A DNA stretch of 64,000 nucleotides from an uncultured Alphaproteobacteria bacterium (GTDB lineage Bacteria > Pseudomonadota > Alphaproteobacteria > Methylaequorales > Methylaequoraceae), in the NCBI GenBank assembly GCA_902540805.1, contig CACBON010000002.1, positions 27,322 through 91,321 on the forward strand. The letters are read 5' to 3'. The position numbers and the translations under genes are program-made. Positions 7,124 to 32,475 of this stretch are shown piece after piece (positions within the stretch are counted from its first letter, which is position 1; every line of letters starts with the position of its first letter). The notes under the pieces are model-generated. The model made no database searches. It was not told the origin of the DNA and worked only from the letters and a program-made list of their open reading frames with translations.

Positions 7124-7139
7124 TGCAATAATTTTGCCA
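7124..7139 (-). promoter_or_regulatory. sigma-54 (-24/-12) promoter candidate for the bactofilin operon
   Basis: Minus strand reads TGGCAA-AATTA-TTGCA. The -12 C is 12 nt upstream of ATG 7112, which implies a leaderless transcript. Confidence 0.55.
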
Positions 7140-7211
7140 ATTAATTTAATTTTTAGAACTTTTACCATTATCATAAAAAAAATTAAAAAAAAAGTTTTAT
7201 TATTTATATTT

Positions 7212-7227
7212 TGGCTTACTAAATGCA
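7212..7227 (+). promoter_or_regulatory. sigma-54 promoter candidate for the K-rich protein / M23 peptidase operon
   Basis: TGGCTT-ACTAA-ATGCA. GG and GC are correctly spaced. The -12 element is weaker (ATGCA). It lies about 42 nt upstream of ATG 7269. Confidence 0.4.
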
Positions 7228-7268
7228 TAAATTTACTTTTAATAAATTTTATTGTAAATTAATGAATT

Positions 7269-7811
7269 ATGAGTGAACCAGTAATTGATATTAGAGACAG
7301 GATAGAAAAGATGAGAAATCAGATGACCGTACCTGCCTCTAAAGTTTCTACTTCAGAAACAAAAGTTGAAAGTAAAAAAATTGAATCCGTACCAAGCGAC
7401 AAAGCCGCAAACATTAATGTAGAAAACTTAGAAAAAAAAATAAGTAAAAACAACTTTGAAATAGCCGATAAAGAAAATATTAAATTTAAGACAAACGAAA
7501 AATCAGCGGTCGATTCTGAAGCAAAAAAGCATAAACCAAAAAAAGCTGAAGAACCTGATTTTATTGAAAAAATAGAATTTGAAAAACAAAAGACTTTTGA
7601 AACTAAGCAAAATTATAAGACCTATGATAGCTATCAAAATGATAGAGTTGTTGATGATAAAAAACAATCAGTAAAGTTTGATGAAAAACAACCATTTCCT
7701 CAGTTTAGTTTAAACGTAAGTAATCCTATTTCTTGGAAACTAATGTTGCTAATTATGTTAATGCAACTGTTAACCAACATGATGTTGGTTGTTGTTTTAT
7801 ACCTAAAATAA
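7269..7811 (+). CDS. lysine-rich protein with C-terminal hydrophobic anchor
   Basis: Low-complexity K/E-rich sequence ending in the TM-like segment LMLLIMLMQLLTNMMLVVVLYL. It is 4 nt upstream of the M23 peptidase gene. Confidence 0.3.
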   Translation: MSEPVIDIRDRIEKMRNQMTVPASKVSTSETKVESKKIESVPSDKAANINVENLEKKISKNNFEIADKENIKFKTNEKSAVDSEAKKHKPKKAEEPDFIEKIEFEKQKTFETKQNYKTYDSYQNDRVVDDKKQSVKFDEKQPFPQFSLNVSNPISWKLMLLIMLMQLLTNMMLVVVLYLK

Positions 7812-7815
7812 CTAA

Positions 7816-9195
7816 ATGGAAAATTTATCTAAAAAATTTTCTATGAATGTGCTTAAATTTAACATTCTGAAAAATCTAAAATCAAGTACAAGATTTGGCG
7901 AAACTAGTATCTTTTCCAAAAACTTAACTGTATTTTCAAAAAACCTTAGACTCATTCTCAAAGAAAGAAGATTTCTTTATTTTACAAAAAAAGGCCCCAT
8001 AGAAGTTGTATTCAACATTAAACATTATCTGTCAGCTATTGCAATTTTTCTGGTTTTAATCTTCAAAGTATTTCAACTTTTATTCTTTGGTGTTTCGTCT
8101 TTTTTTTCTTATATGATTTACAAAAATACAGTTATAAATGAGCAGAGCTTTACAGAATCCGAAATTAAAACGTTAAAAAGTATTGCAAAAGGTAAAAATA
8201 TATCGGAGCAAGAAATTAATTCTGAAAAAGCAGAAATAGTAATAAAACAAAAAGATGAATTTAACAACACAAATAATTATCAAAATGAATTACAAGATCA
8301 ATTAAGAGAAAAATTATTAAATTTAAAAAGTATGATGCGAAATATAAAGCTTAGCCTCCCAAATGACTTGAATTATTCAGATGAAATTAAATTTGAGCAA
8401 TTTTCTAAAATTGCGAGTCCTGAAATGGTTGCAATAGAACACGCCTTCGAAAACAAGTTTGATTTAACAAAACCATCAAAAGACCAAAAGGAATCATTTT
8501 CATATAAGAAACTGCCTGTTATACCGTTTGTTGCACCAAGAACAAAAAAACTGAAAATAATTAATTTTACTAAGAAAATTGATATTGAAATTTTACAACT
8601 TTTAAGTGTTTTTGAACAATTAAAACTTCAACCAGATAAACTTGATATTCATAGGATAAACGCCTTGCTTTCTGAAAATATAAATGTAAGTGAAGATAAC
8701 GAGGATTTGTTGGATCATACTTCGCTAAGGTTTCAAATCTTGCAAGATCTTAAAGATGCAATTATTTATGTGCCTTTAAAACCACCTATGCAATATTACT
8801 ATGTCTCTAGTCCCTACGGTGTCAGAGTTCATCCTAAAAGCAAAAGAAAACAAATGCATCATGGAATTGATATGGCTGGTACTTGGCAAGAAGAGGTTAG
8901 GGCACCTGCTGATGGATATGTTTCTTTTTCAGGAAGAAATGGGTCTTTTGGTAAAACAATCAAAATAATACATAAACATGGTGTGTCAACATTGTATGGA
9001 CATCTTCATCGATTGAATGTGAAAAAAGGAAAGAATGTTACAGAGGGCGAAGTAATTGGAAAAATGGGATCAACAGGAAGAGCTGTAGGTGCGCATCTTC
9101 ATTATGAAATAAAAGTCAATGGTAAATCAGTAAATCCATATGATTTTATTTCAGTGGGACGTGATCTGCTAAGCAGTTCAATAATTAAAAAATAA
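7816..9195 (+). CDS. M23/LytM family metallo-endopeptidase (membrane anchored, coiled-coil middle)
   Basis: C-terminal HHGIDMAG...GRAVGAHLHYEI carries the HxxxD and HxH motifs of peptidase M23. One N-terminal TM helix. Confidence 0.75.
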   Translation: MENLSKKFSMNVLKFNILKNLKSSTRFGETSIFSKNLTVFSKNLRLILKERRFLYFTKKGPIEVVFNIKHYLSAIAIFLVLIFKVFQLLFFGVSSFFSYMIYKNTVINEQSFTESEIKTLKSIAKGKNISEQEINSEKAEIVIKQKDEFNNTNNYQNELQDQLREKLLNLKSMMRNIKLSLPNDLNYSDEIKFEQFSKIASPEMVAIEHAFENKFDLTKPSKDQKESFSYKKLPVIPFVAPRTKKLKIINFTKKIDIEILQLLSVFEQLKLQPDKLDIHRINALLSENINVSEDNEDLLDHTSLRFQILQDLKDAIIYVPLKPPMQYYYVSSPYGVRVHPKSKRKQMHHGIDMAGTWQEEVRAPADGYVSFSGRNGSFGKTIKIIHKHGVSTLYGHLHRLNVKKGKNVTEGEVIGKMGSTGRAVGAHLHYEIKVNGKSVNPYDFISVGRDLLSSSIIKK

Positions 9196-9204
9196 AGTAA
9201 AGTT

Positions 9205-9220
9205 TGGCACTTAAATTGCT
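9205..9220 (+). promoter_or_regulatory. sigma-54 promoter (consensus-perfect) for the SLT-domain gene
   Basis: TGGCAC-TTAAA-TTGCT. The -12 C is 12-13 nt before ATG 9232, which implies a leaderless transcript. Confidence 0.6.
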
Positions 9221-9231
9221 GAATAAAATGC

Positions 9232-9834
9232 ATGAGATTATTTTTGGCCGTTTTATTATGCTTTTTAATATTTACATTTCTTGAATCAAAAGAATTAGAT
9301 AATTGTAACTATTTAACTGAAAAGTACGGAAAAATTTATAATCTTCCCAATAAATTATTAACTTCTATCGCACTTGTAGAATCTGGGATCAAAAAGAACG
9401 AATTTAAATCATGGCCATGGACACTAAATGTTTCTGGAAAATCAATGTATTTTGATAATAAATTAGAAACCTTAGAATATTTAAAAAGTAATATAAGATT
9501 AAAAAAAAGTATCGACGTCGGTTGCATGCAAATTAATACAAGATACCACTTGAAAAATTTTAAAGATTTGTCTCATTTAGTCGAGCCCGAAGAAAATGTT
9601 AAGTATGCTGCAATTTATCTTCGTAAACTTTATAATAAACATAAATCGTGGAACGAAGCGGTTTCAAGATATCATTCATCAATTCCAAAACGAAAGAAAA
9701 ATTATCTTAAAAAAGTTCATACATATTGGAATGATTTAAGACAACAGAAAATAGTTATTAATAATTATACCAGCCATGATGAAGCAGAAAAAATAAAATT
9801 TTTTAGAGAAATACTAAATAAAGAAAATATTTAA
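9232..9834 (+). CDS. lytic transglycosylase (SLT domain) with signal peptide
   Basis: SIALVESGIKKNE (catalytic ES), VGCMQIN and AAIYLRKLY motifs of family-1 SLT domains. N-terminal signal peptide. Confidence 0.65.
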   Translation: MRLFLAVLLCFLIFTFLESKELDNCNYLTEKYGKIYNLPNKLLTSIALVESGIKKNEFKSWPWTLNVSGKSMYFDNKLETLEYLKSNIRLKKSIDVGCMQINTRYHLKNFKDLSHLVEPEENVKYAAIYLRKLYNKHKSWNEAVSRYHSSIPKRKKNYLKKVHTYWNDLRQQKIVINNYTSHDEAEKIKFFREILNKENI

Positions 9835-9839
9835 GATTT

Positions 9840-9855
9840 TGGCAAAGTATTTGCA
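9840..9855 (+). promoter_or_regulatory. sigma-54 promoter candidate for a small ORF
   Basis: TGGCAA-AGTAT-TTGCA. The -12 C is 12 nt upstream of ATG 9866. Confidence 0.55.
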
Positions 9856-11668: not shown

Positions 11669-11708
11669 TTGACACTTCAACTAAGTCAGATACTTGACAC
11701 CCTTGACT
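11669..11708. repeat. three direct TTGAC(A/T)C repeats in the rpoN / 11751 intergenic region
   Basis: TTGACAC at 11669 and 11694, and TTGACT at 11703. They could be sigma-70 -35 boxes or a regulator site. Confidence 0.25.
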
Positions 11709-12377: not shown

Positions 12378-12574
12378 AAAATTGTAGAATATGTTCTTTC
12401 ATAAGATATTTTTTAGGTTTTGTTCTGTTATTGATTATTATTTCGCTGACTTTTAAAGACAATCTAGGTTATCTTTCGTTTGTAACACCATGGAATGCAG
12501 CAATATTAATATTTGGTGTGGGTTGTTGTCTATTTTTATTTAAATTAATTGAGTATTTAAATCAGAAAGATTAA
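12374..12574 (+). CDS. small two-TM membrane protein
   Basis: ORF with two hydrophobic helices. Overlaps the upstream stop by 4 nt. Confidence 0.25.
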   Translation: MKNCRICSFIRYFLGFVLLLIIISLTFKDNLGYLSFVTPWNAAILIFGVGCCLFLFKLIEYLNQKD

Positions 12575-13047
12575 CGATCTTTTACAAATCTTACAAATAA
12601 TTCTTTCTCAGGTACAAACCTTCCATAAGAATGCCCCGTAAAGAAGTTTACTGACCAAAAAAACTTAGGTGACCACCAATTTCTTTGAGAAGTCCAGAAA
12701 GGTTCAGCCGGTGTATTAGGAAAAAAAGTTTTATTTATCTTTGCTCCCTCGCATTTTTTACAAATTAAACTTTCAAGCTCTTTTCTAGAGGGCAATCTCC
12801 ATTCACCTTCAATTTGTTCATTAAGTAAATTATTAGCCTCTTCTGCAGATTTTAAATCCAATTTAACTGCAGTTCCAAGACATTCTTGTTTGTTGTCGCT
12901 CCATTGTTGACCTGTTGTACATTTTAACCATTCAAGTTTATTTTTTAAATCTATAACGTAATATCCTTTGTCTATGAAGTTAGATGCAAAGACATTATTA
13001 CTAAAAAATAATAGGAAAAAACATATAAAAAGTTGCTTTTTAATCAT
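12571..13047 (-). CDS. DUF1566 (Lcl C-terminal domain) secreted protein
   Basis: Signal peptide. WLKCTTGQQWSD...WRLPSRKELESL matches the DUF1566 pattern. Confidence 0.5.
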   Translation of the reverse strand: MIKKQLFICFFLLFFSNNVFASNFIDKGYYVIDLKNKLEWLKCTTGQQWSDNKQECLGTAVKLDLKSAEEANNLLNEQIEGEWRLPSRKELESLICKKCEGAKINKTFFPNTPAEPFWTSQRNWWSPKFFWSVNFFTGHSYGRFVPEKELFVRFVKDR

Positions 13048-13096: not shown

Positions 13097-13112
13097 TGGT
13101 ATTAAAGTTGCA
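13097..13112 (+). promoter_or_regulatory. sigma-54 promoter candidate for motAB, inside a 28-bp palindrome
   Basis: TGGTAT-TAAAG-TTGCA. It sits in the inverted repeat tggtat...atacca (13097-13124), 51 nt upstream of ATG 13163. Confidence 0.45.
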
Positions 13113-13162
13113 GAATCCATACCAAAATATTAATTGTATATTAAATGAAAATGGAAAAATAA

Positions 13163-13936
13163 ATGGATTTAGCTACAATAATTGGTTTTCTTGGTACAAT
13201 TGGCATGATTGCTGGCGCAATGATTTCAGCTGGAGGCTTGGGGTCATACATTGATGTCCCTTCAATTTTAATAGTTTTTGGTGGTTCTTTTTTTGCTGTA
13301 ATGTATACGGCACCCTTACCAGTTTATCTTGGTTCTTTCGGAGCTTTTGGTAAAGCTTTTAAACCACCTGTAAAAAAAATGGACGAACTTATTGAAAGAA
13401 TAGTAGAGCTAGCAGGTATTGCAAGAAAAGATGGAATGATGGCATTAGAAGGGCAAGAAACCCCAGATCCATTTTTTGACAACGGTCTTCAAATGCTAGT
13501 AGACGGAGCAGATGAATCAAAACTTACCGTACAATTAAAAAAAGAACTAAAGGCAATGCAAGGTCGACATGAAAAAAATATTGGGTGTGCCCAATCTTGG
13601 GTAGATATAGCACCTGCAATGGGAATGATTGGAACTTTGGTTGGATTGGTTGCGATGCTTGGTAATATGGCAGATCCTAAAGCAATAGGTCCTGCAATGG
13701 CCGTTGCTCTTTTGACTACACTTTACGGGGCTATGATAGCAAATACTATTTTTATGCCGATAGTAATAAAATTAAAAGGCTACTCAGCCTACGAAACAAC
13801 CTACAGAGAAATGATCATTACAGGTTTACAATTTATTTCCAGAGGAGAGAGTCCAAGAAATATTCAGGATCAACTTGTTGCGAATCTTCCACCTAAAGAA
13901 AAGCAAAAACTCCTGGAAGCTGCAGCTGGAGGTTAA
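13163..13936 (+). CDS. motA: flagellar stator protein MotA/PomA
   Basis: MotA/TolQ/ExbB family with 4 TM helices (GTLVGLVAMLGNMADPKAIGPAMAVALLTTLYG). Immediately upstream of motB. Confidence 0.75.
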   Translation: MDLATIIGFLGTIGMIAGAMISAGGLGSYIDVPSILIVFGGSFFAVMYTAPLPVYLGSFGAFGKAFKPPVKKMDELIERIVELAGIARKDGMMALEGQETPDPFFDNGLQMLVDGADESKLTVQLKKELKAMQGRHEKNIGCAQSWVDIAPAMGMIGTLVGLVAMLGNMADPKAIGPAMAVALLTTLYGAMIANTIFMPIVIKLKGYSAYETTYREMIITGLQFISRGESPRNIQDQLVANLPPKEKQKLLEAAAGG

Positions 13937-13946
13937 TGTTTGAATC

Positions 13947-15131
13947 ATGGCTGAGGAAAAAACCGAAAATCAACAGACATCTAATGAAGAAGAGGAGCAT
14001 GAATGTCCTGAATGCCCTCCAAAAGGAGCACCTGCTTGGATGGCAACTTTTGCCGACATGGCAACACTGTTGATGGCTTTTTTTGTTTTAATCCTATCTT
14101 TCGCAGAATTTAACGTCCCAAAATTTAAACAAATAAGTGGAAGTATGAAGAATGCTTTTGGAATACAAAGAGTTATTCCAGTTGTTGAACCACCTAAAGG
14201 AACAACAATATTATCTTTAAACTTCAGTCCGAACCCGACTCCAGCAGTTCAAGAAAATTTAAAACAACAAACAACAGAGACTGATCAACCTAAAGTAGAA
14301 CTTCAAACTAAGAACGAAGATAATACTAAGGATGATGGTGAAACTGAGGACGCGAAAGAACTTGCCAAAAATATTCAGGAAGCTATTGCAAGAGGTGATA
14401 TAACCGTCGAAGCATTAGGGAGTAAAGTTGTTGTTAACTTTACACCAACAGAAGCTGACGAGAAAGAACTACCGCAACTACTTCAAGAGACTTTAAATGC
14501 TGTGGAATCTGTAAAGGCTGCATCAGGAAAATCAGATTCTGAAATTTTAATTGGTGGCTTAGAAAAACAACTCGCTGATCTTGCAACAGCATCTTCTCAA
14601 AAAGGTAAAAATGAGGCTGAAGGAGAAGATGGAGAAAGTGTAGGTCAATCTGAACAAAGCCAATCAGCTAAAGAGGAGGCTAAAAAAGCAGAGTTGGCTG
14701 AGGACAAATTAAAAATTGCACTTAAACAAGAAATTGGGGAAGGTCTTGTAAATGTTGATAGAGAGGACGACAAAGTGATAATAACTGTTGGGTCTGCTGG
14801 TGCGTTCAAGTCAGGATCTGCTGAACTTACCAACAAGGCAAGACAGATAATGTCTAAAATAGCAGAACAAAATAAAAAAGGTAGAAGTGAGATATTAGTT
14901 ATGGGTCATACGGACAATGTGCCACTTACATTTGGGTCAAATTATAGAGACAATTGGGATCTCGCAGCAGCAAGATCTGCCTCAGTGGTACAACAATTAT
15001 CAAGAAATGATACTCTCGACCCAAAAAGAATGAAGGCGATTAGTTACGGAGAGACAAGACCAGTAGAGTCAAATGATACCTCTCAGGGAAGAGCCAAAAA
15101 TAGAAGAATCGAAATTGAGATAAATTATTAA
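13947..15131 (+). CDS. motB: flagellar stator protein MotB with long acidic linker
   Basis: N-terminal TM helix with the conserved Asp region (ATFADMATLLMAFFVLIL). C-terminal OmpA-like peptidoglycan-binding domain (MGHTDNVPL...NRRIEIEI). Confidence 0.75.
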   Translation: MAEEKTENQQTSNEEEEHECPECPPKGAPAWMATFADMATLLMAFFVLILSFAEFNVPKFKQISGSMKNAFGIQRVIPVVEPPKGTTILSLNFSPNPTPAVQENLKQQTTETDQPKVELQTKNEDNTKDDGETEDAKELAKNIQEAIARGDITVEALGSKVVVNFTPTEADEKELPQLLQETLNAVESVKAASGKSDSEILIGGLEKQLADLATASSQKGKNEAEGEDGESVGQSEQSQSAKEEAKKAELAEDKLKIALKQEIGEGLVNVDREDDKVIITVGSAGAFKSGSAELTNKARQIMSKIAEQNKKGRSEILVMGHTDNVPLTFGSNYRDNWDLAAARSASVVQQLSRNDTLDPKRMKAISYGETRPVESNDTSQGRAKNRRIEIEINY

Positions 15132-15132
15132 G

Positions 15133-16056
15133 ATGAAAATAGAAAATAGTCCATTTCATATTTCTAAAAATAAGGTTTCCCCTGTAAAAGAAAATAAAGG
15201 GCCTAAAAATCAACAACTATTCAATGATAAGAAGGTTAATAAACCCGAAAAAGACGATTTTTCTTTTTGGGATTGGTTTAGAGGGTTGGTCAACCCTTTC
15301 CAAAATCTTCCAATTATAAGTGGAATTTATTCAAGCATTAATTCTGATGATAGTAAATCCGATAGAGACTTAATTCAAAATAGTCTTGGTGGTTTTATGT
15401 ACGGTGGTCCTATTGGCGCGATTGCAGGTTTTGGGAATTGGGTTTTTAATAAAATATTTGACAAAACGCCGTCAGAACTAGCGCTTGATGTTTCAGGAAT
15501 AAGCAATCTTTGGAAAGACAATAAGAACAAAGAGAGTCAGATTGCAGAAAATAATAAAATAGATGATGACAAAAATTCTTCTGTGGTTTTTTCTAATAAA
15601 AATACTTACGGAGAATGGTGGAAAGGCAACCAAAAATCTAGTACTAAAAATTATGTAGCATCTGGCAAAAATAATTTTGAAAAAACTAACCTCCCCAACT
15701 TCAAAAATGTAGGTATCGAAAATAAAAATAATGCTATCGAAAGAAATATTAATAAATATTCGACCAAACCAGTTGTTTTGGAAAATAAACAAAATATTAC
15801 TTTGGCTTTTGATGGAAAGTCTGAGTTAGTAAAAATAAATAATCAAATCTCTGGGTCGATAGATAACAAAAATGAAAATAAAAAGTCCAAAAAAGAAAAA
15901 TTTGGAGAAATCAATTTTAACTATCCGAATTGGAGTCCCAGATCTTTTGAAGTTGACAAAAATAAAAATGAATTGAAAAGCAAAGACTTAATTAATAAGA
16001 AATATATGGATCTTAAAAATGGAAATATTGGAGCAAACTTAAATTTGAAACTTTAA
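15133..16056 (+). CDS. N/K-rich low-complexity protein of unknown function
   Basis: The ORF starts 2 nt after the motB stop. Confidence 0.3.
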   Translation: MKIENSPFHISKNKVSPVKENKGPKNQQLFNDKKVNKPEKDDFSFWDWFRGLVNPFQNLPIISGIYSSINSDDSKSDRDLIQNSLGGFMYGGPIGAIAGFGNWVFNKIFDKTPSELALDVSGISNLWKDNKNKESQIAENNKIDDDKNSSVVFSNKNTYGEWWKGNQKSSTKNYVASGKNNFEKTNLPNFKNVGIENKNNAIERNINKYSTKPVVLENKQNITLAFDGKSELVKINNQISGSIDNKNENKKSKKEKFGEINFNYPNWSPRSFEVDKNKNELKSKDLINKKYMDLKNGNIGANLNLKL

Positions 16057-16656: not shown

Positions 16657-16665
16657 AAGATGATT

Positions 16666-17466: not shown

Positions 17467-17473
17467 TGTTTTG

Positions 17474-21977: not shown

Positions 21978-22055
21978 AAACAACAGTAGTCACTTTAAAT
22001 AGCTGATTTAATTGATAAATTATTCATTAAAAAAAAGATGTCAATTTGCTGACAA

Positions 22056-22457: not shown

Positions 22458-22468
22458 AATTTTTCTCC

Positions 22469-23446: not shown

Positions 23447-23458
23447 AACTTTTATTTC

Positions 23459-24091: not shown

Positions 24092-24118
24092 TATTTTCTC
24101 CTTAATATTTTAAATTAA

Positions 24119-25429
24119 TTAGGCATTCACATCAATATTATGATTACTAAATTTTTGATTTTTATTTTCAACATTTTTTTTATTCTTTTTGGAAATTTCA
24201 TTGTTTACCAAAAAATTTTCTCTTTCATTTTTTTGGTTAAAATAATTACTATTGTTATTTTCATTATTCATATTAGCTGAGAAACTTTTGCTTTCTTTAT
24301 CAATTGATTCTAAAAGTTTTGGAATATTGTCATTAAGGAGGCTCACAACATCCTGATTCTCTGAACCAATATTAATGGCTGTGACACTATTTTTTACAGA
24401 AACCTGGAGGTTTAATTTGCCTAAATTTTTGGGTTTAACCTGAATTTCTAATTTGTTTACACCATTATTAATTGCATTTTTTACAATTCTAGAGAATTTT
24501 TCGCCCCAGCTACTCTCTAATAAATCTAAAAAGATTTGTCCTTTATTTTGCATCTGATTGTCTTTAGTTTCCAAAGTTTTTGAAAAATCTTTATTGCTGA
24601 TTTCTCTTTTCTGACCTATTTGATTTTCTGCTGATTTTTTTATAATTTGAGAAAAATTAGTGTTTTTTCTATTCTCGATTTTGACTTGTTTTGTAACAAG
24701 GTCGTTGTTTTCAATTGTATCTTTTGCAGAAACTTTAAATTGTTTATTCTTTTTGTTTATTTTCTTGTTAATAATTGCAGTTTCAAAGTTTGAATTCTTG
24801 GCTTTGTAATTAAATTCATTTTGCTGCTTTAATACTTTACTATCAATTTGACTTTTATTTTCAGTATAATATTTTGGATTTTTTTCATTTTTGTTAATTC
24901 TTTTTGAAGATGAAGGACCTTTAATTATATTTATAACAATTTTTTTTGAATTTTCATTTTTAAACGCTAAATCAGATTCATTAGGATCCAATTTATTCTC
25001 TATAGCTATTTTTTTTTCCTCTGTTATAAAATTTTTATTTAATAATGGTTTTGGATTTTGATTTAAACTGTTTGGATTAGAATTTTTTGTTTGATTCAAA
25101 GGTTCGACAATACCAATTTCTTTATAAAACACCTCTATAAGTGATTTTGCAGTCTCGTATTCAGAATCTGTGACCTCTAATTTATTTCTCTGCTCGGAAG
25201 TTACTTTTAACAAACTCTTTTCAGAGATATTTTTATTTACATCCAAAAATCCTTCGGTATCAGTTTTTTGTAAGACCACATCTTTCAGCAAGTTTTTATT
25301 TTCAGGATCTAAACTATTTGTATTTATTAGTGCAAAGAGTTCAGCAAATAACTCATTTGTTTTTTCAGAATGTAAAGTTGAGTTTACGAAATTTATGTTT
25401 TTGCTAGTATCATTTTTTATTGCAACCAT
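24119..25429 (-). CDS. fliK: flagellar hook-length control protein FliK-like
   Basis: Low-complexity N-terminal part. C-terminal Flg_hook-like block LEIQVKPKNLGKLNLQVSVKNSVTAINIGSENQDVVSLLNDNIPKLLESI. Confidence 0.55.
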   Translation of the reverse strand: MVAIKNDTSKNINFVNSTLHSEKTNELFAELFALINTNSLDPENKNLLKDVVLQKTDTEGFLDVNKNISEKSLLKVTSEQRNKLEVTDSEYETAKSLIEVFYKEIGIVEPLNQTKNSNPNSLNQNPKPLLNKNFITEEKKIAIENKLDPNESDLAFKNENSKKIVINIIKGPSSSKRINKNEKNPKYYTENKSQIDSKVLKQQNEFNYKAKNSNFETAIINKKINKKNKQFKVSAKDTIENNDLVTKQVKIENRKNTNFSQIIKKSAENQIGQKREISNKDFSKTLETKDNQMQNKGQIFLDLLESSWGEKFSRIVKNAINNGVNKLEIQVKPKNLGKLNLQVSVKNSVTAINIGSENQDVVSLLNDNIPKLLESIDKESKSFSANMNNENNNSNYFNQKNERENFLVNNEISKKNKKNVENKNQKFSNHNIDVNA

Positions 25430-25452
25430 AACTGCCCCTTGTTAAAGCAATT

Positions 25453-25468
25453 CTGCAATTATAATGCC
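25453..25468 (-). promoter_or_regulatory. sigma-54 promoter (consensus-like) for fliK-L-M-N
   Basis: Minus strand reads TGGCAT-TATAA-TTGCA in the 43-nt fliJ-fliK gap. The RBS AAGGGG and ATG 25429 follow. Confidence 0.6.
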
Positions 25469-25472
25469 ACTA

Positions 25473-25886
25473 TTAAAGAGAAACTGAATTTTTAGGTTTG
25501 AAATAATTTTCTTTTTTTAATTCTTTTACTTTATCTTCTTGAATTTTAATAAATTTCTTTTTTTCATTTATTTTTTCTTTTTGTTTTTCAATTTTTACTA
25601 TTTCTTTTAGATTATGACTAATTTCGTCTAAAACATGATTTTCCCTATTTTTTGAAACCTCAAGTTTATTTATTAAATTGCTGGTAAAAGAAGCTCTAAA
25701 TTTTAAATCTGAACCTGAAAGTTCACCAGATTCCTCTACGGCGCTTTGATTTAACATTTCATTCAACGTTTCTTTTACAAAATCTAACCTTTTTTTTTCA
25801 TCATTTAGTGTAGATAAATTGTTAAGTAGTTTATTTTTCTTTAATTTTTTGAGAGTTAAAAAAATATCATATTTATTTTTTTTCAT
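25473..25886 (-). CDS. fliJ: FliJ-like coiled-coil export chaperone
   Basis: 137-aa charged coiled-coil protein immediately downstream of fliI. Confidence 0.45.
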   Translation of the reverse strand: MKKNKYDIFLTLKKLKKNKLLNNLSTLNDEKKRLDFVKETLNEMLNQSAVEESGELSGSDLKFRASFTSNLINKLEVSKNRENHVLDEISHNLKEIVKIEKQKEKINEKKKFIKIQEDKVKELKKENYFKPKNSVSL

Positions 25887-25890
25887 GTCA

Positions 25891-27210
25891 TCAGTTAATC
25901 TTTTTCAAGCTTGTTATGCTGTCTTCAAAACTCGATTTTTTTTTAAAGTGTTGTTTTATATGACTGCAAATTTTATTCCAATTATTTAATGCACTATCAA
26001 TTTCAGGGTTTTGCCCTTGGGCATATCCCCCCATAAGAATTAGATCTTTGTTTTCTTGGTATATGGAGTATAATTTTTTTACTAAATCAGAATGATTTTG
26101 ATGTTCCTCGGTAACAATAGAATTCATTACTCTACTTAATGATTGATTCAAATCAATTGCAGGAAAAATTCCAAGTTGTGCAAGTTCTCTAGATAATACA
26201 ATATGTCCATCTAATATTGCCCTGGCAGTGTCTACTACAGGATCGTTCGTATCATCAGAATCTGCCAGTATTGTATAGAAACTTGTTATAGTTCCTTCAT
26301 TTGTTGAACCGGCTCCAGTTCTTTCGATTAGATTTGGAATCATTGAAATTACAGATGTTGGGTATCCTTTTGAAGTAGGTTGTTCACCAAGTGCCAACCC
26401 CACCTCTCGTTTAGCATGTGCTATTCTGGTAAGAGAGTCCATAATAAGCAAAACGTTTTTTCCTTTAGACCTAAAATATTCTGCAATTGAAGTTGCTCTT
26501 TCTGCTCCTTTAATTCTTAATAATGGCGATTTGTCTGCTGGCACGGCTACAGTGACAGTTCTTTTTCTTGATTCGTCATTCAATATTTCTGATACAAAAT
26601 TTCCTAACTCTCTTCCTCTTTCTCCGATGAGTGCTACAACAACAACATCAGCGTCAGTAAACTTAGTCATCATTCCAAGTAAAATAGATTTTCCAACTCC
26701 AGAACCTGCAATGATTCCAAGCCTTTGCCCCCTTCCTACAGTAAAAAGTGAATTGATCGCTCTAATACCAACATCTAGCACTTCATTTATTGGTTTTTTT
26801 GACATTGGGTTATCGGGTTTTCCATTAATTGGCCATGTTTCTGAAGAATCATTTATTTTTGCCCCTCCATCTATTGGATTCCCAAAAGCATCTAAAACCC
26901 TTCCAAGTAAATGAGAACCCACAATTACATCATTTGATGAATTTAAGACTCTTATTTCAGACCCCAAAATTATGTTTGCATTATTTTCATGAACGGCAAT
27001 AATATTTTTATTTTCTTTGAAACCAATGATTTCTCCCGTGACTATAGATTTGTCATTACATTCTATTTCACATGTTGTCCCGATTGGTGCGGGAAATGCT
27101 TCACATTCGACAACTTTACCGTCATATTTTGATGTTTTACTCTTATAGATCCTGTTTTGAGATATAGTATGTGAATCTACAGTCTGAAGTATTTTTTTTG
27201 CTATAACCAT
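25891..27210 (-). CDS. fliI: flagellum-specific ATPase FliI
   Basis: Walker A motif GSGVGKS. F1/T3SS ATPase family core. Confidence 0.9.
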   Translation of the reverse strand: MVIAKKILQTVDSHTISQNRIYKSKTSKYDGKVVECEAFPAPIGTTCEIECNDKSIVTGEIIGFKENKNIIAVHENNANIILGSEIRVLNSSNDVIVGSHLLGRVLDAFGNPIDGGAKINDSSETWPINGKPDNPMSKKPINEVLDVGIRAINSLFTVGRGQRLGIIAGSGVGKSILLGMMTKFTDADVVVVALIGERGRELGNFVSEILNDESRKRTVTVAVPADKSPLLRIKGAERATSIAEYFRSKGKNVLLIMDSLTRIAHAKREVGLALGEQPTSKGYPTSVISMIPNLIERTGAGSTNEGTITSFYTILADSDDTNDPVVDTARAILDGHIVLSRELAQLGIFPAIDLNQSLSRVMNSIVTEEHQNHSDLVKKLYSIYQENKDLILMGGYAQGQNPEIDSALNNWNKICSHIKQHFKKKSSFEDSITSLKKIN

Positions 27211-27234
27211 TTACATTTAATTCTAAATAGAAGT

Positions 27235-28101
27235 TTATTTTTGAGAACTTAATTTGGCATCTTCAAGATCTTTCTCAATTTCATCAGGTATTGAAAATTT
27301 AATTTTTTTAGAAACAATATCACTCATCTCTATTGATCCTGATTTTATTCTCATATCACCTCGTTCAAGTTTTGCATCTTGATTGATTTCAAATGACAAA
27401 CTTAAATTATTTTTACTGTTGTAAACCTTTATAGCTTCAAAATCTTTTGGATTTAAAAAAACTACAATATTTTCAATTGAGTTTTCAATTGAATTAACAA
27501 CTTGCTTAATTTTTTCTTGAAAGAATTTATTGTTATTATCTATCTCGTAACCTAAAACTTCTTTTGATAAATTTGAAAGTAAATTAGTTATTGATTTGTT
27601 TAATTCATTAACAAATTCTGGTGTCATTTTAAAAATATTATCAGTTGTATTTTTAAGAGTCACAGCAAGTGACTTTTCTCCTTTTTGAAGCTCTTCGGTA
27701 GTTTTTTTTACTCCAAGTTTATAACCATTATTGTAATATTGTTTTGCCATATCATTGGCTAATTTTTGTGCTTCTTTTTCTGTATATATTTTTTCATTGT
27801 CTGGTTTTTTTTCATCGATAACATCACTTGTTGGTTCCTTGTCTTTACTTTCAGAAACCTCATTTAAATCTTTTGTTACTTCTTCTTTTTTTTCAGATGT
27901 TATTTCTTGATTTTTTTGTGCAAGGGATAACGGAGTAACTTTTTTAAACAAATTTGTGATGTTAGAAGTGATATCTGACTCTTTTACGAAGTCTTTGTTA
28001 CTTTTATTTAATAAACTAACAATTTCTTCAGTGCTTAGTGCTCCAGAAATTTTTTCATCACTTTTTTCCTGAGCTTCGGTTTTGTCTGTGAGTGGCATCA
28101 T
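27235..28101 (-). CDS. fliH: flagellar assembly protein FliH-like
   Basis: Charged K/E-rich protein between fliG and fliI. Overlaps fliG by 4 nt. Confidence 0.5.
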   Translation of the reverse strand: MMPLTDKTEAQEKSDEKISGALSTEEIVSLLNKSNKDFVKESDITSNITNLFKKVTPLSLAQKNQEITSEKKEEVTKDLNEVSESKDKEPTSDVIDEKKPDNEKIYTEKEAQKLANDMAKQYYNNGYKLGVKKTTEELQKGEKSLAVTLKNTTDNIFKMTPEFVNELNKSITNLLSNLSKEVLGYEIDNNNKFFQEKIKQVVNSIENSIENIVVFLNPKDFEAIKVYNSKNNLSLSFEINQDAKLERGDMRIKSGSIEMSDIVSKKIKFSIPDEIEKDLEDAKLSSQK

Positions 28102-29147
28102 ACGAAGTCATCTCCACCTCTTCCAGCAAGTACAATTGTTCCTTCGTCTGACATAGTTCTTGCTACATTGATGATGGCCTTCTGAGCCTCTTGAACTTCT
28201 GTAAGTCTCAATGGGCCAAGTACCTCCATTTCATCTCTGATGTTTGCCGAAGCTCTTTGAGACATGCACGAGAAAATCTTATCTTTCAATTCATCTTCTG
28301 TTCCTTTAAGCGCAATTATAAGAATTTCTTGATCAACATTTCTTAATAAAGTTTGCATGCTTCTATCATCCATTAAAATTAATGTATCAAAGGTAAACAT
28401 ACTTTCCTGAATTTCTTTAGCTAAATTTCTGTCCTTTTCACCTAACGTTTTCATGATTCTTTGTTCCATATTCTGCTTTGTAAAATTCATTATTGATGCA
28501 GCATCTTTTATTCCTCCGACTGATGAGGCTCGCAATGAAGTGTTTGTTTTAAATTTAAGTTGCATAACTCTTTCCAATTCTGCCAAAGCGTCTGGTTGAA
28601 CTGTTTCTAGAGTTGCAATACGATGAATAATATCAGATTGAGTTTCTTCGGGTAGCAAAGTTAAAACATCTGCTGCAACACCAGGCTCTAAATACGAAAT
28701 TATCAATGCCATTATTTGAGGATGTTCATCAGAAATTAACTCTGCAACTGATCTGGCATCCATCCAATCTAAAATTTCTATTGGCTTGTCACTTTCAGTA
28801 GGAGTAATTCTTCCAAGAACAGACTGAGCTTTATTTTCACCTAAAGCTTTTGTCATTACATTTCTAATGTAGTTTGTAGAACCCATACCCAAGTCAGTTT
28901 GTGTTTTTATTATGGCTAAAAATTCGTCTAAAACTCTATTCACAGTTTCTTGATCTAAACCTTGAACATTGTACATCTCTTTACCGAGTTGCTGCACTTC
29001 TTTTGGACCCAAATTTTTTAAAATTTCTGAAGCCTCTTCCTCGCCTAAAAGCATCATCAAAATAGCACATTTTTGAGTACTTGTTAATTGTTCATATTGC
29101 GACTTTTCTTCTTCTTCTTTATTTTCTTCCTTTGCTTTTTCAGCCAT
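28098..29147 (-). CDS. fliG: flagellar motor switch protein FliG
   Basis: Typical FliG N-terminal, middle and C-terminal domains (LTSTQKCAILMMLLGEEEASEILKNL...). Confidence 0.85.
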   Translation of the reverse strand: MAEKAKEENKEEEEKSQYEQLTSTQKCAILMMLLGEEEASEILKNLGPKEVQQLGKEMYNVQGLDQETVNRVLDEFLAIIKTQTDLGMGSTNYIRNVMTKALGENKAQSVLGRITPTESDKPIEILDWMDARSVAELISDEHPQIMALIISYLEPGVAADVLTLLPEETQSDIIHRIATLETVQPDALAELERVMQLKFKTNTSLRASSVGGIKDAASIMNFTKQNMEQRIMKTLGEKDRNLAKEIQESMFTFDTLILMDDRSMQTLLRNVDQEILIIALKGTEDELKDKIFSCMSQRASANIRDEMEVLGPLRLTEVQEAQKAIINVARTMSDEGTIVLAGRGGDDFV

Positions 29148-29171
29148 TTGAGTACTCCTTATTAATTTATA

Positions 29172-30896
29172 TTATACATCTTTTTTCATAAGTTGTCTGA
29201 ATACATTTGAAACTTTTCCAGCTTCATCTCCCACTATCATCCTGATAACAGCAACTTTATCGTCGTAAGTATTGGCCGTATCGAGCATATCTGCTGAAAT
29301 AGTTGATTTTTTTGGTTTAAGTTTAGCTTTTATGTCTTCAAGAGATTCGCCTTCTTGAACTTGAACTTCATCTTCTGCTTCTTCTGCCTCAAGATCAGCT
29401 TCAGAAGTACCACCTGGACCTGCAGCTGTTCCAGCTGAAGGAACTAAAATTCTATTTAACAATGGCTTTAATGCACCGAATGTTACGATTGCAAGAATTA
29501 GAACAGTCGATAACTGACCAACCATATTTTGAAACCATGATTGTTCATACCATTTAGTTGTTATAACATCCATTTCTTGGATAAAATCTCCACTTGTTAC
29601 AACAATTGTGTCTTCTCTATCCTCATTGAAACCAACTGCTTCTTTAACAAGAGAAGTAATTTTTTCTCTATCTTCTTCACTTATTGGCTCAGAGACAACT
29701 GTGCCTTCTGGAGTTTCAATCATTTTGTTTTTAACTAAAACAGCCGTCTTAACTTTCTTAATTTTTCCGATTTGACCAACAGTTGTACTAAGTTTTTTAC
29801 TAACCTCATAGTTTTTAACATTACTGGATGATCTTTGCTTGAATTCTGCTGGTTCCCCAGTTTCAGGAGCTGCAACCTGTAAATCAGCAGCTAGAGGTGC
29901 TTGGTTAGCTACAGCACCAGGAATACCTCTTGCCGGTCTATCAGTGGATTCGTCTTGACTATTTTGTTCACTTCTAGTCGAAATGCTCTCTGGATCAAAA
30001 ATTTCTTCTGTTGTTTGATTGCTTGTAAAATCCATTTCAACATTTACTTGTGCCGTTAAATTACCTGCACCAACGATTGGAGAAACTAATGATAAAATTC
30101 TTTCTCTGTATATTGATTCAATTTTTACTCTATGAGCTAACTGTTTTTCTGTCATTGCTAAATTTGGGTCATCTTCTGGTTTCGACAATAACGAACCATA
30201 TTGATCCACAACTGTTACGTTATCGGAAGTCATATTAGGAATTGATGATGATACTATATGAACAATTGATCTAATTTGCTCTAATCCTAAAGCTCTTCCA
30301 TCAGCTAGTTTCACAAATACAGATGCAGTGGGAGGAGAGGAGTCTCTGACAAAAACAGATTTTTCAGGAATTGCTAGATGTACTCTTGCTCCAATAATAT
30401 TAGCTATTTCATTTATCGATCTGGCAAGCTCTATTTCTTGCGTCTGTTTCATTTTCATAAATTCAACTGACCTACTTGTTCCCATTGGGATTTTTTCAAG
30501 AATATCATAACCTTGAGGAACTGAACTCGGCAAACCTTCTGCGGCAAGTTTCATCTTTGCTTCATAATATTCAGGCGACGGAACTAAAATTTCACCTGTA
30601 GTTCTGTCGATTGAAACATCAATTCCATTAGATCTTAAAACATCAATTACTCTGGATTTTTCATGTTCAGGTAAAGTTGCAAATAAAGTTGTTCTTGGGG
30701 GTTCTCTGAAAGATATAAAAAAAACTAAACCAAGAAAAATAACAAATAAAGTTATCATAACTGGAATAGATCTTTGAACAGCAGGTTCATTAGAAAATTT
30801 TTTAATTTTTTCTATGGAGTTAGTTATGTTTGACAACATTCCTTGATTTGATATTGAATTTTTTGTTATTTCAGTAGTTTGAATCTCTTCAGCCAT
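29172..30896 (-). CDS. fliF: flagellar MS-ring protein FliF
   Basis: 574 aa with two TM helices and a YscJ/FliF fold. Located between fliE and fliG. Confidence 0.85.
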   Translation of the reverse strand: MAEEIQTTEITKNSISNQGMLSNITNSIEKIKKFSNEPAVQRSIPVMITLFVIFLGLVFFISFREPPRTTLFATLPEHEKSRVIDVLRSNGIDVSIDRTTGEILVPSPEYYEAKMKLAAEGLPSSVPQGYDILEKIPMGTSRSVEFMKMKQTQEIELARSINEIANIIGARVHLAIPEKSVFVRDSSPPTASVFVKLADGRALGLEQIRSIVHIVSSSIPNMTSDNVTVVDQYGSLLSKPEDDPNLAMTEKQLAHRVKIESIYRERILSLVSPIVGAGNLTAQVNVEMDFTSNQTTEEIFDPESISTRSEQNSQDESTDRPARGIPGAVANQAPLAADLQVAAPETGEPAEFKQRSSSNVKNYEVSKKLSTTVGQIGKIKKVKTAVLVKNKMIETPEGTVVSEPISEEDREKITSLVKEAVGFNEDREDTIVVTSGDFIQEMDVITTKWYEQSWFQNMVGQLSTVLILAIVTFGALKPLLNRILVPSAGTAAGPGGTSEADLEAEEAEDEVQVQEGESLEDIKAKLKPKKSTISADMLDTANTYDDKVAVIRMIVGDEAGKVSNVFRQLMKKDV

Positions 30897-30913
30897 AATT
30901 TTTTCCTTTTAAT

Positions 30914-31252
30914 TTAAACAGGCATATTCATAATGTCTTTGTATGCACTCAGGACTTTATTTCTTACGTTCAAAGTCATTTGAAAACCCAGACTTGATAA
31001 TTGTTGTTGAATCATAACCTTGGTAAGATCGTTTTCTAATCCAAGTTCAAAGTTTTTTGTTAACTCAGCACTTTGTTTTTGAGTATCAGAAACTTCTTGA
31101 ATAGCTGATTTAATACTATCCAAAAAACCACCATCTTGTGGTTCCATAATTTTTGGAGACAGATTTGCAATATCCTCTTGAACTTTTTTTATTTCATTTT
31201 GATTGTTTGGTGTAATAACTGTTGGTTTTAAATTAGTAAGGTTTGGTTTCAT
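30914..31252 (-). CDS. fliE: flagellar hook-basal body protein FliE
   Basis: The C-terminal ...VLSAYKDIMNMPV matches the FliE C-terminal motif (AYQEIMRMQV). Confidence 0.75.
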   Translation of the reverse strand: MKPNLTNLKPTVITPNNQNEIKKVQEDIANLSPKIMEPQDGGFLDSIKSAIQEVSDTQKQSAELTKNFELGLENDLTKVMIQQQLSSLGFQMTLNVRNKVLSAYKDIMNMPV

Positions 31253-31268
31253 TATTTCTCCTTCAAAA

Positions 31269-32426
31269 TTAAGCTTGCATCAATTTTTTTTCTGACAAAT
31301 TTTCTTGAATGTTATTATAAAAATTACTTTCTTTCGAAACATCTATCATTATGTCTTTATCTTCAATTATATTTCTTTCAGAGAGAACTATAGCTCTTTG
31401 CAGAACATTTTCCAACTCTCTAACATTTCCGGGCCAACTATACTCTCTTAATATTTTTTGAGCATCTTTGTTGATGTAAGGTAGGGCGCTTTTTTCTGTG
31501 TGTCTATTCAATAAAGCTATACTAATTGGCAAAATATCATCAGGTCTTTCAGATAAATTATGTGTTTCTATTGGGAACACATTAAGTCTGTAATATAAAT
31601 CCTCTCTGAATTTTTTATCTTTTACTTCGTTTAACATATCTCTATTAGTTGTTGCAATTACTCGAACATTAACATCAATATCTCGTTGTCCGCCAATCGG
31701 TGTAACTTTTTTTTCTTGGAGAACTCTAAGAAGCTTAGCTTGAAGGGACAAAGGCATTTCAGATACTTCATCAAGAAGTAATGTTCCATTATCAGCAGCT
31801 CGAAAAATTCCTTTATTCGCAGAGGAAGCTCCTGTAAAAGCTCCTTTTTCATGTCCAAATAACATTGCTTCAAGCATATTTTCTGGTATCGCAGCACAAT
31901 TTATTGCAATAAAAGGTTTTTCATGTCTATCCGACTTTTTATGAATAAGATTGGAAATAACTTCTTTTCCAGTTCCAGTCGGTCCATGAATAAACACTGT
32001 AACATCTGTTTTTGAAACCTTTTCAACCATATTAATTAAAGAAAGTGTTTTCTTATCTGAGAAACTATACTTTTCCTTAGATATAATCTGAAAAATAATT
32101 TCTTTTATAACCTCATCCATAATCTGGAAAGAAATTTGAATATAAGCTCCGCCCATTTCTTTTTTTAAGTCATAACTACTATCATTTTCTGAATCCAAAA
32201 CTATTAATTTTGTAGAACCTATATTTCTAGCAATTTTAAGAATGTTTGATTGACCACCTTGTTGGTTTTCGAATTTTTTATCGATAATCAATGTGGATTG
32301 AGAACTTTTAATTTCACTGATCTCATCAGAATCAATTAATTTGATTTCCTTTCCTTTTTTACTAAAAAAATCATTTATATCATTGTGTACTTCAAAACAA
32401 TCTTTAATAATAAATATTTCCTTCAT
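31269..32426 (-). CDS. sigma-54-dependent activator lacking a DNA-binding domain (FlgR/FleT-like); start set to ATG 32426
   Basis: Degenerate receiver-like N-terminus. AAA+ core with GPTGTGKE and GAFTGA. About 40 aa follow GNVREL and contain no Fis-type HTH. The track ORF starts at TTG 32453. Confidence 0.8.
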   Translation of the reverse strand: MKEIFIIKDCFEVHNDINDFFSKKGKEIKLIDSDEISEIKSSQSTLIIDKKFENQQGGQSNILKIARNIGSTKLIVLDSENDSSYDLKKEMGGAYIQISFQIMDEVIKEIIFQIISKEKYSFSDKKTLSLINMVEKVSKTDVTVFIHGPTGTGKEVISNLIHKKSDRHEKPFIAINCAAIPENMLEAMLFGHEKGAFTGASSANKGIFRAADNGTLLLDEVSEMPLSLQAKLLRVLQEKKVTPIGGQRDIDVNVRVIATTNRDMLNEVKDKKFREDLYYRLNVFPIETHNLSERPDDILPISIALLNRHTEKSALPYINKDAQKILREYSWPGNVRELENVLQRAIVLSERNIIEDKDIMIDVSKESNFYNNIQENLSEKKLMQA

Positions 32427-32459
32427 ACTTAAATCCTTTATTTTCGTTTTCAATCTAAA

Positions 32460-32475
32460 AGCAAAAATATTGCCA
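32460..32475 (-). promoter_or_regulatory. sigma-54 promoter candidate driving the EBP-fliE-F-G-H-I-J operon
   Basis: Minus strand reads TGGCAA-TATTT-TTGCT. The -12 C is about 12 nt upstream of 32449. RBS AAAGGA precedes ATG 32426. Confidence 0.55.

Follow-up and report, generated by a model that had tools for sequence, protein, structure and literature searches.

Control of flagellar genes by sigma-54, through activators of the FleQ/FlrA and FleR/FlrC/FleT types, is textbook knowledge in Pseudomonas, Vibrio and Rhodobacter. In the Fla1 system of Rhodobacter sphaeroides the rpoN2 gene lies in the flagellar locus, FleQ activates fleT-fliEFGHIJ, and a FleQ/FleT complex activates the class III genes, motAB included; FleT itself has no DNA-binding domain, and the flagellar transglycosylase SltF is exported by the Sec route (PMC7277832, PMC11999139). 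The FleQ consensus proposed for Pseudomonas aeruginosa is GTCaNTAAAtTGAC, a 14-bp palindrome (PMC6120874). Adjacency of bactofilin and M23 peptidase genes is known as a conserved cell-shape module (PMC10945521). The present analysis concerns a 64,000-nt stretch of contig CACBON010000002.1 from an uncultured alphaproteobacterium (the window), which holds a motility island with rpoN, two genes for enhancer-binding proteins (EBP1 and EBP2) and a set of motifs resembling sigma-54 promoters. It is likely that these motifs are genuine -24/-12 promoters for the sigma-54 of the island and that they serve a flagellar programme, probably in two tiers, including predicted leaderless transcripts for a soluble lytic transglycosylase (SLT) gene and for the bactofilins.

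Eight motifs with GG-N10-GC spacing had been proposed by an earlier reading made from the letters alone (the sequence-only reading). Their 16-mers were all found in the window as quoted, seven at the exact coordinates; the fliK site lies at 25454-25469 and not at 25453-25468 (Table 1). Together with a further site at 18253-18268, they scored 8 to 10 of 11 positions against TGGCAC-N5-TTGCW with GG and GC fixed. Six sites contain an exact GGCA-N6-TTGC, all of them intergenic and correctly oriented. The gene labels attached to the motif targets agreed with Pfam content, except that the small open reading frame (ORF) of 56 aa was found to start at 9881, behind an AAGGAA Shine-Dalgarno sequence, instead of at 9839. 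The eight motifs had been placed upstream of the first genes of transcription units. Their intergenic location and orientation towards the gene were borne out, but unit boundaries were not marked by terminators. Since the terminator scan gave no terminator-like sites between co-directional units, "first gene of a transcription unit" is to be read here as "gene behind a promoter" and not as a demonstrated operon boundary. Counts in the sigma-70 and terminator scans were at or below the shuffle expectation, AT-rich DNA making both scans otherwise uninformative.

Fewer than one such match had been expected by chance, an estimate that was adequate for strict definitions and too optimistic for the weakest sites. 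The exact GGCA-N6-TTGC was observed six times in the window against 0.81 expected, and matches at 10 or more of the 11 consensus positions, with GG and GC fixed, five times against 0.31. With up to two mismatches the count was 22 (9.3 expected). At the level of the loosest accepted site, upstream of orf180 (at least 8/11), 33 matches were observed, while about 10.6 are expected per window. The significance of the motif set comes from its position. Nine intergenic matches of at least 8/11 were present, and from every one a start codon follows on the same strand after 11-61 nt; 300 Markov simulations gave an expectation of 0.19 for such placement. For promoter-positioned matches of at least 9/11 the figures were seven observed and 0.03 expected. 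No promoter-positioned match was found in the window outside 7-33 kb, its housekeeping half included.

Conservation was evaluated in 98 related loci obtained by several searches. An RpoN scan of genome collections yielded 13 syntenic loci from uncultured marine Alphaproteobacteria (RpoN 67-96% identical), which are single-cell genomes named AG-... and one metagenome-assembled genome labelled Pelagibacteraceae. A metagenome scan with FliI added 80 further loci (FliI 56-98% identical), many with the EBP2-to-orf266 gene order, and an exact FliG look-up added six more on contigs of up to ~1.5 Mb, the identical FliG being carried by the ~1.5-Mb contigs ERZ28548095 contig_4068 and ERZ28548065 contig_7091. 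The gene order of the flagellar targets was syntenic in all relatives. Counts such as 11/11 refer to distinct upstream regions among the loci containing the region in question.

Seven of the eight proposed promoters were kept at orthologous positions, the bactofilin site being clade-specific. The SLT promoter was present in 11/11 distinct regions (14/14 loci), that of the 56-aa ORF in 10/10 (12/12 loci, with five different spacers), that of motA in 10/10 (11/11 loci) and that of orf180 in 11/11. For fliO it was kept in 17/17 regions with 10 spacers, reaching relatives with FliO identity as low as 28%. The EBP1 promoter was found in 11/11 regions and in all 17 loci with the EBP2/EBP1 intergenic region, and reads TGGCTT-N5-TTGCC in distant relatives. 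The fliK promoter was kept in 10/10 regions, or in 38 loci if the search was anchored on the motif. The elements were conserved while spacers and flanks diverged. Among 35 distinct 58-mers at fliK, with 17 spacers, conservation of at least 90% was seen only at TGGCA and TTGCA, and upstream of the 56-aa ORF it was confined to TGGCA, TTGCA, an AAGGAG Shine-Dalgarno sequence and the ATG. The exceptions were motA and orf180, whose spacers are invariant as well. At orf180 a 21-nt block, TTGGCT(T/C)A..AAATGCATAAA, was present in 11/11 regions, though Orf180 itself drops to 39% identity.

The bactofilin site was present in 6/11 distinct regions (L001, L003-L006 and L012), always 11 nt from the ATG. 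It was confined to the closer clade (RpoN at least 81% identical) and is missing through a 22-nt indel in L007, L009, L010, L011 and L013, whose RpoN is ~70% identical.

As a comparison, distinct upstream regions of non-target genes were scored with the same motif (threshold of at least 8/11). No motif was found for 26 of 30 such genes, including rpoN (0/10) and EBP2 (0/24). The exceptions were fliJ (24/24), which is treated below as a candidate site, flhB (15/27) and scattered matches upstream of fliQ, fliL and fliM, which fall in the adjoining coding sequence. The flhB matches were rejected as promoters because they sit in the fliR coding sequence. Two other matches were discarded as coding coincidences: the one at 31399-31414 in EBP1 encodes the conserved peptide ELENVLQ, and the one at 22143-22158 in fliN is kept through the peptide V-G-T-M-I-A only, while its synonymous sites vary. 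This fliN look-alike, varying exactly at the synonymous sites, provides an internal negative control.

The presence of rpoN and two EBP genes in the island was confirmed. RpoN displayed the Pfam domains Sigma54_AID, Sigma54_CBD and Sigma54_DBD and an RpoN box, ARRTVAKYR, at residue 456, and both activators contain GAFTGA, at residue 79 in EBP2 and at residue 195 in EBP1. EBP2 (354 aa) consists of AAA+ and HTH_8 domains. Its closest solved relative is FleQ (8p53, E 1.8e-83), residues 7-351 being aligned to FleQ 150-485 with the helix-turn-helix (HTH) included, and its recognition helix is almost identical to the FleQ helix IRRTTLVEKMRKY. The AAA+ domain begins at residue 7, leaving no N-terminal FleQ/REC-like domain; EBP2 is therefore a truncated FleQ relative and not a canonical FleQ. 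It is the candidate master regulator. EBP1 (385 aa) showed Sigma54_activat and AAA_lid_14 without HTH_8, and ends nine residues past the lid match. Its closest solved relative is FlrC of V. cholerae (4qhs, E 2.6e-80). The N-terminal 125 aa of EBP1 gave no Pfam match at E<5 except noise, and no receiver model matched. The same 385-aa product is given by gene callers in relatives.

Exact GTCA-N6-TGAC palindromes were found three times in the window (0.38 expected), always in intergenic DNA (Table 1). Related loci totalling 915 kb hold 51 occurrences, and these three intergenic positions account for 45 of them. The fliO palindrome retains GTCA-N6-TGAC at the same position in 24 loci, high-GC relatives included, and the rpoN one in 11 loci, where it is followed by a conserved half-site, TGTCAAATT. 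The EBP1 palindrome is conserved in close relatives, and distant relatives have one or two copies of GTGTCAGAAAtTTGAA. In form, the palindromes GTCAGCAAATTGAC, GTCAGAAAACTGAC and GTCAAGTATCTGAC match the FleQ consensus, the fliO palindrome differing from it at one specified position. No FleQ box above background was found at the other promoters when up to two mismatches were allowed between -300 and +120. The palindromes are candidate enhancers (upstream activating sequences), to which EBP2 would bind by analogy with FleQ. One palindrome precedes rpoN at a place that has no sigma-54 promoter; this suggests that the FleQ-like EBP2 also acts on rpoN, as well as on its own divergent promoter.

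Other elements were noted around these sites. A conserved ATCAATaAAtTCAaTtACTTA-like element lies between the fliO enhancer and promoter (21978-22038), and we take it to resemble the IHF site WATCAANNNNTTR. Upstream of EBP1, a 24-nt A/T-tract occupies the equivalent place.

Two promoters showed an unusual geometry. Counting back 12 nt from the A of the ATG leads to the C of the GC element at both the SLT gene and the first bactofilin, so that canonical initiation would give a leader of 0-1 nt. The distance from motif end to ATG, 10-11 nt, was constant in 14 SLT loci and seven bactofilin loci, and the intervening bases change. No Shine-Dalgarno sequence was detected at either gene, while one is present at fliK, fliO, EBP1 and the small ORF. 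Both start codons are credible, since the SLT protein opens with a signal peptide and the bactofilin with MFSR..., in line with the bactofilin membrane-targeting consensus MFSKKKK (PMC12448750). From this geometry the SLT and bactofilin transcripts are predicted to be leaderless.

The occurrence of the bactofilin/M23 module in a flagellar island, between predicted sigma-54 promoters, suggests co-regulation of cell shape and motility here, as far as promoter placement can indicate. To our knowledge there is no report of sigma-54 or flagellar co-regulation of such a module, no literature search having been made. The bactofilin/orf180 intergenic region (7140-7211) also contains, in all relatives, a block ATG(C/A)TTATCA(T/C)AAAA...TTAAAAAAAAAG. 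Read on the bactofilin strand, this block is a GATAAT-like -10 element, and it is found where the sigma-54 motif is absent too. It may represent an ancestral sigma-70 bactofilin promoter, to which the sigma-54 promoter was added in one clade, or lost again in the others, by the 22-nt indel. The gene directly 5' of the M23 peptidase, orf180 (7269-7811, forward strand), encodes a protein that is rich in lysine and has a membrane anchor at its C-terminus.

Apart from the eight proposed motifs, an intragenic one at 18253-18268 was overlooked by the sequence-only reading. It was present in 20/20 distinct regions. Among 15 distinct orthologues of the 66-aa Cys-rich gene, with protein identity as low as 33%, the third positions of the motif's GGC, TGT and GCA codons were invariant, while the codons around them show synonymous changes. 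Of the Gly codons of the window, just 7% are GGC. Third positions frozen in this way indicate selection at the nucleotide level, and the site was accepted as a ninth predicted sigma-54 promoter. The host gene is also called by gene callers in relatives, is conserved to 33% identity without any family match, and its stop codon overlaps the orf241 ATG. Next to it, orf241 encodes a bitopic membrane protein that contains a coiled-coil region and whose size and topology are, in our view, reminiscent of R. sphaeroides MotF.

Weaker candidates were found at two other places. The reverse-strand motif at 13109-13124, facing the Lcl_C-domain gene, was kept in 7/9 distinct regions with a variable spacer, its GG being gone in L011; it is a possible sigma-54 promoter, though a weak candidate. 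With the motA promoter it forms an imperfect palindrome at 13097-13124, TGGTAT-N6-TGCA-N6-ATACCA, which would be either two divergent sigma-54 promoters sharing a -12 TGCA or the site of a dimeric factor. The other motif, at 25965-25980 near the end of fliI, scored at least 8/11 in 24/24 distinct regions and is lost in distant relatives. Its Cys codon is TGC without exception in the AT-rich clade, though TGT accounts for 71% of the Cys codons of the window. A possible internal promoter may be seen in this site, its -24 half being weak. A near-perfect match to the sigma-28 consensus, TAAA-N15-GCCGATAA, was noticed at 7445-7471 (forward strand) in orf180. In 1.04 Mb of loci it turned up nowhere but in the window and in L001, the closest relative, and it was dismissed as probable chance; neither fliA nor sigma-28 promoters were seen in the window.

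Taken by themselves, most of the sites are very probably functional sigma-54 promoters, judging from their placement and conservation. The proposal of one regulon is supported as regards a common sigma-54 promoter set, which is probably divided into two tiers, as the FleQ box is found only at the EBP1 and fliO promoters. In the first tier EBP2, itself not sigma-54 dependent, would bind the palindromes upstream of EBP1-fliEFGHIJ and fliOPQR-flhB and open the sigma-54 closed complexes through DNA looping and ATP hydrolysis. The output would be the MS ring, FliG, the export apparatus and EBP1, and EBP2 may act at the rpoN palindrome too. In the second tier EBP1, acting from solution by itself or joined with EBP2 in a hetero-oligomer, would activate the promoters without a box, namely those of fliKLMN, motAB, the SltF-like transglycosylase, the 56-aa ORF, orf180-M23, orf241 with its downstream genes and, in this clade only, the bactofilins. 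The assignment to tiers draws on the restriction of boxes to the EBP1 and fliO promoters and on the HTH-less EBP1 heading the fliE-J operon, and the case for it is evenly balanced.

Several points weigh against this programme. Start sites and rpoN dependence are predictions from sequence. The motA (TGGTAT) and orf180 (TGGCTT...ATGCA) motifs are off-consensus with invariant spacers, an invariance that could come from another bound factor, instead of or besides sigma-54. The tiers depend on finding no palindrome within ~300 nt, and enhancers can be degenerate, downstream or farther away. Likeness to the FleQ box is an analogy with Pseudomonas, where the consensus is itself debated (PMC6120874). 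Read-through between co-directional units without terminators could supply much of the expression, so that some promoters may be minor. Specificity to motility genes was assessed within the 64-kb window.

The alternatives differ in how much of the programme they would remove. The matches could be functionless, products of chance in AT-rich DNA or of coding and composition; motifs are indeed common at two or three mismatches, and several coding matches are explained by conserved peptides, as in EBP1 and FliN. This account is extremely improbable, since promoter-positioned matches are ~50-fold or more above expectation, are kept at orthologous positions in ~100 loci although the spacers have diverged, and coincide with rpoN, two EBP genes and conserved enhancers. 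Placement statistics and the comparison of targets with non-targets refute it for practical purposes. A subtler possibility is that some motifs bind sigma-54 holoenzyme or another protein unproductively, the genes being served by read-through or sigma-70. The candidates would be the SLT and bactofilin sites 12 nt from the ATG, the motA and orf180 sites, which depart from consensus, and the intragenic ones. The absence of terminators between units, with SLT starting 36 nt after M23, would allow it, as would the GATAAT-like element, which every relative has upstream of the bactofilins, even where the sigma-54 motif is absent. The invariant motA and orf180 spacers are unneeded for a pure -24/-12 promoter, and the motA region forms the imperfect palindrome TGGTAT-N16-ATACCA. 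Yet orientation is always toward the gene, the rigid distance between SLT motif and ATG in 14 loci with changing bases fits a fixed start better than a roadblock, and the first bactofilin and SLT lack a Shine-Dalgarno sequence, as leaderless messages would. We consider unproductive sites improbable as an explanation.

A flat regulon was also considered, in which EBP2 alone drives all real sigma-54 promoters and EBP1 is a modulator or anti-activator without a temporal tier. EBP1 does lack a DNA-binding domain, and in R. sphaeroides flagellar promoters are not activated by FleT on its own (PMC11999139); EBPs can act from solution, and degenerate or coding-region sites could be missed by a scan with two mismatches. 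Against it, every relative strictly keeps the palindrome at two promoters and lacks it at the others, and an HTH-less EBP heading fliE-J behind a box-bearing promoter is the architecture that gives tiers in R. sphaeroides. A flat arrangement thus appears rather unlikely, though it deserves some weight.

The two-tier programme can be joined with the other observations in a wider, tentative reading, which we regard as possible and somewhat doubtful. Promoters fused to start codons would give leaderless SLT and bactofilin mRNAs; the bactofilin/M23 module would have been drawn into the flagellar regulon in one clade through a promoter-bearing 22-nt indel; and a FleQ without its sensory N-terminal domain, with a conserved site upstream of rpoN, would run the programme. 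If true, this would be a minimal, streamlined flagellar circuit coupling cell shape to motility.

Table 1. Predicted promoters, palindromes and genes of the motility island (positions in the window; +1, transcription start).
Feature	Positions	Strand	Sequence	Remarks
Bactofilin operon, predicted promoter	7124-7139	-	TGGCAAAATTATTGCA	GC element 12 nt before ATG at 7112; predicted +1 ~7113
orf180-M23, predicted promoter	7212-7227	+	TGGCTTACTAAATGCA	Weak consensus, 8/11; predicted +1 ~7238
SLT, predicted promoter	9205-9220	+	TGGCACTTAAATTGCT	Occupies the 36-nt M23-SLT gap; predicted +1 ~9231, ATG 9232
56-aa ORF, predicted promoter	9840-9855	+	TGGCAAAGTATTTGCA	Predicted +1 ~9866
motA-motB-orf307, predicted promoter	13097-13112	+	TGGTATTAAAGTTGCA	9/11, unusual T after GG; predicted +1 ~13123
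fliOPQR-flhB (and genes after), predicted promoter	21962-21977	-	CGGCAAGGTTTTTGCA	Predicted +1 ~21951
fliKLMN, predicted promoter	25454-25469	-	TGGCATTATAATTGCA	In the 43-nt fliJ-fliK gap; predicted +1 ~25443
EBP1-fliEFGHIJ, predicted promoter	32460-32475	-	TGGCAATATTTTTGCT	Predicted +1 ~32449
orf241, predicted intragenic promoter	18253-18268	-	TGGCACAGATTGTGCA	10/11; in the 66-aa Cys-rich gene, 53 nt before orf241; predicted +1 ~18242
Candidate divergent promoter	13109-13124	-	TGGTATGGATTCTGCA	8/11; faces the Lcl_C-domain gene; shares TGCA of the motA promoter; candidate +1 ~13098
Candidate internal promoter	25965-25980	-	TGGAATAAAATTTGCA	3' end of fliI, 78 nt before fliJ; weak -24 half; candidate +1 ~25954
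Palindrome, EBP1	32572-32587		TGTCAGAAAACTGACA	Perfect; predicted EBP1 start site lies ~130 nt downstream; near the EBP2 start codon; long A-tract follows
Palindrome, fliO	22039-22054		TGTCAGCAAATTGACA	Adjoins the fliN stop; predicted fliO start site lies ~95 nt downstream
Palindrome, rpoN	11684-11699		AGTCAGATACTTGACA	Divergent rpoN/orf208 intergenic region; no sigma-54 motif nearby
Three bactofilins	6014-7112	-		Pfam Bactofilin x3
orf180 and M23 peptidase	7269-9195	+		Pfam Peptidase_M23 for the peptidase
SLT gene (SltF-like)	9232-9834	+		Pfam SLT; signal peptide
Small ORF, 56 aa	9881-10051	+		Behind AAGGAA Shine-Dalgarno sequence
rpoN, 486 aa	10149-11609	-		Pfam
Lcl_C-domain gene	12571-13047			Faced by the reverse-strand candidate promoter
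motAB	13163-15131	+		Pfam; orf307 is a further gene of the motA-motB-orf307 unit
RRF-like protein, 199 aa	16057-16656	-		PF01765, weak full-length match, E 3e-12
orf241	17474-18199	-		Predicted sigma-54 target
Cys-rich gene, 66 aa (CNNC...C...C)	18196-18396	-		Between flhB/orf80 and orf241
fliOPQR-flhB	18594-21928	-		Pfam
fliKLMN	22056-25429	-		Pfam
EBP1-fliEFGHIJ	25473-32426	-		Pfam; EBP1 itself 31269-32426
EBP2	32618-33682	+		Pfam; divergent from EBP1
Flagellar targets	13163-32426			motAB-orf307 (+); EBP1-fliEFGHIJ, fliKLMN, fliOPQR-flhB-orf80-cys66, orf241-orf266 and RRF-like gene (-)
Accessory/non-flagellar targets	6014-9834			Bactofilins (-), orf180-M23 (+), SLT lytic transglycosylase (+)

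The window was found to be 96.1% coding, with 2,494 nt (3.9%) of intergenic DNA and a GC content of ~29%. Its part from 34 to 64 kb is a housekeeping region with bamB, der, purF, dnaB, rpsF, rplI, fab genes, gmk, ksgA, pdxA, surA, lptDFG and pepA. The Pfam match of FliO was weak (E 0.0014), and no Pfam or NCBIfam assignment was obtained for orf180, the 56-aa ORF, orf241, the 66-aa Cys-rich ORF, orf208, orf307 or the N-terminus of EBP1. Rfam and tRNA scans of the window gave no matches. The gene for the protein resembling ribosome recycling factor (RRF) is the last of a co-directional string from fliO, a position kept in all relatives; the protein looks like a divergent RRF paralogue joined to the flagellar operon. 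At the other end, a 1,024-aa protein (136-3210, forward strand) adjoins the island in all relatives and gave a weak partial match to phosphoenolpyruvate carboxylase (E 1e-18; profile positions 114-623 of 919).

The source is a flagellated, streamlined pelagic lineage. An exact look-up of FliK gave no match, and literature searches on motility in HIMB59/AEGEAN-169 yielded nothing of use. Membership in the flagellated, deep-branching Rickettsiales (Mitibacteraceae) is not supported; these are described as richer in GC than classical Rickettsiales, and no link to them was seen. Members of the Pelagibacteraceae, the label carried by one of the relatives, are usually regarded as non-motile. The finding is confirmatory rather than surprising, the type of circuit being already well known. 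Its value lies in a regulatory map of 9-11 promoters, three enhancer sites and predicted start sites for a streamlined marine lineage of uncultured Alphaproteobacteria. The map illustrates how a circuit is compacted at ~4% non-coding DNA, where promoters fill gaps, abut start codons or sit in coding sequence with frozen synonymous sites. The map also suggests that the bactofilin/M23 module and a peptidoglycan-remodelling enzyme share the regulation of the flagellum. One promoter, that of the bactofilins, was apparently gained or lost recently and would be a small natural case of regulon rewiring.

In most features the sites agree with canonical sigma-54 promoters, having GG-N10-GC, TGGCA with TTGCA/T, and an enhancer at ~100 nt upstream that is separated from the promoter by an A-tract or IHF-like element. 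They depart from them in that two abut the start codon, one lies inside the 66-aa gene and is doubly constrained, and one pair may be divergent and share a -12 TGCA.

Compared with the four-tier sigma-54 cascades of Pseudomonas (FleQ to FleS/FleR) and Vibrio (FlrA to FlrB/FlrC), EBP2 has FleQ, and EBP1 has FlrC, as its nearest solved structure, and the palindromes have the FleQ-box form of Pseudomonas. In P. aeruginosa, fliE-J and fliL-R/flhB are FleQ-dependent class II genes and fliK is a FleR-dependent class III gene; the distribution of box-bearing promoters in the island agrees with this split. Unlike in both cascades, EBP2 has no N-terminal domain, there is no FleS/FlrB kinase gene, and the FleR/FlrC-like EBP1 has no HTH.

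As in BacA-LmdC of Hyphomonas neptunium and CcmA-Csd1 of Helicobacter, a bactofilin gene adjoins an M23 gene, and the first bactofilin opens with MFS(K/R) (PMC10945521, PMC12448750). Unlike those modules, the present one is located in a flagellar island, with predicted sigma-54 promoters on both divergent operons, the bactofilin one being clade-limited.

The arrangement resembles Fla1 of R. sphaeroides in several respects: a sigma-54 gene in the flagellar locus, an HTH-bearing EBP on top, a second, HTH-less EBP as first gene of EBP-fliEFGHIJ behind a sigma-54 promoter, sigma-54 control of motAB and further late genes (here by prediction), and a Sec-exported lytic transglycosylase in place of the FlgJ muramidase domain. 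By domains and gene position, EBP1 and EBP2 can be likened to FleT and FleQ, respectively. In R. sphaeroides, however, the transglycosylase gene belongs to the flgG operon, whereas here it has its own promoter beside M23 and the bactofilins. A further difference is that motAB lies inside the island, and that the promoters are accommodated in gaps of 36-47 nt and in coding sequence, in DNA of ~29% GC that is 96% coding.

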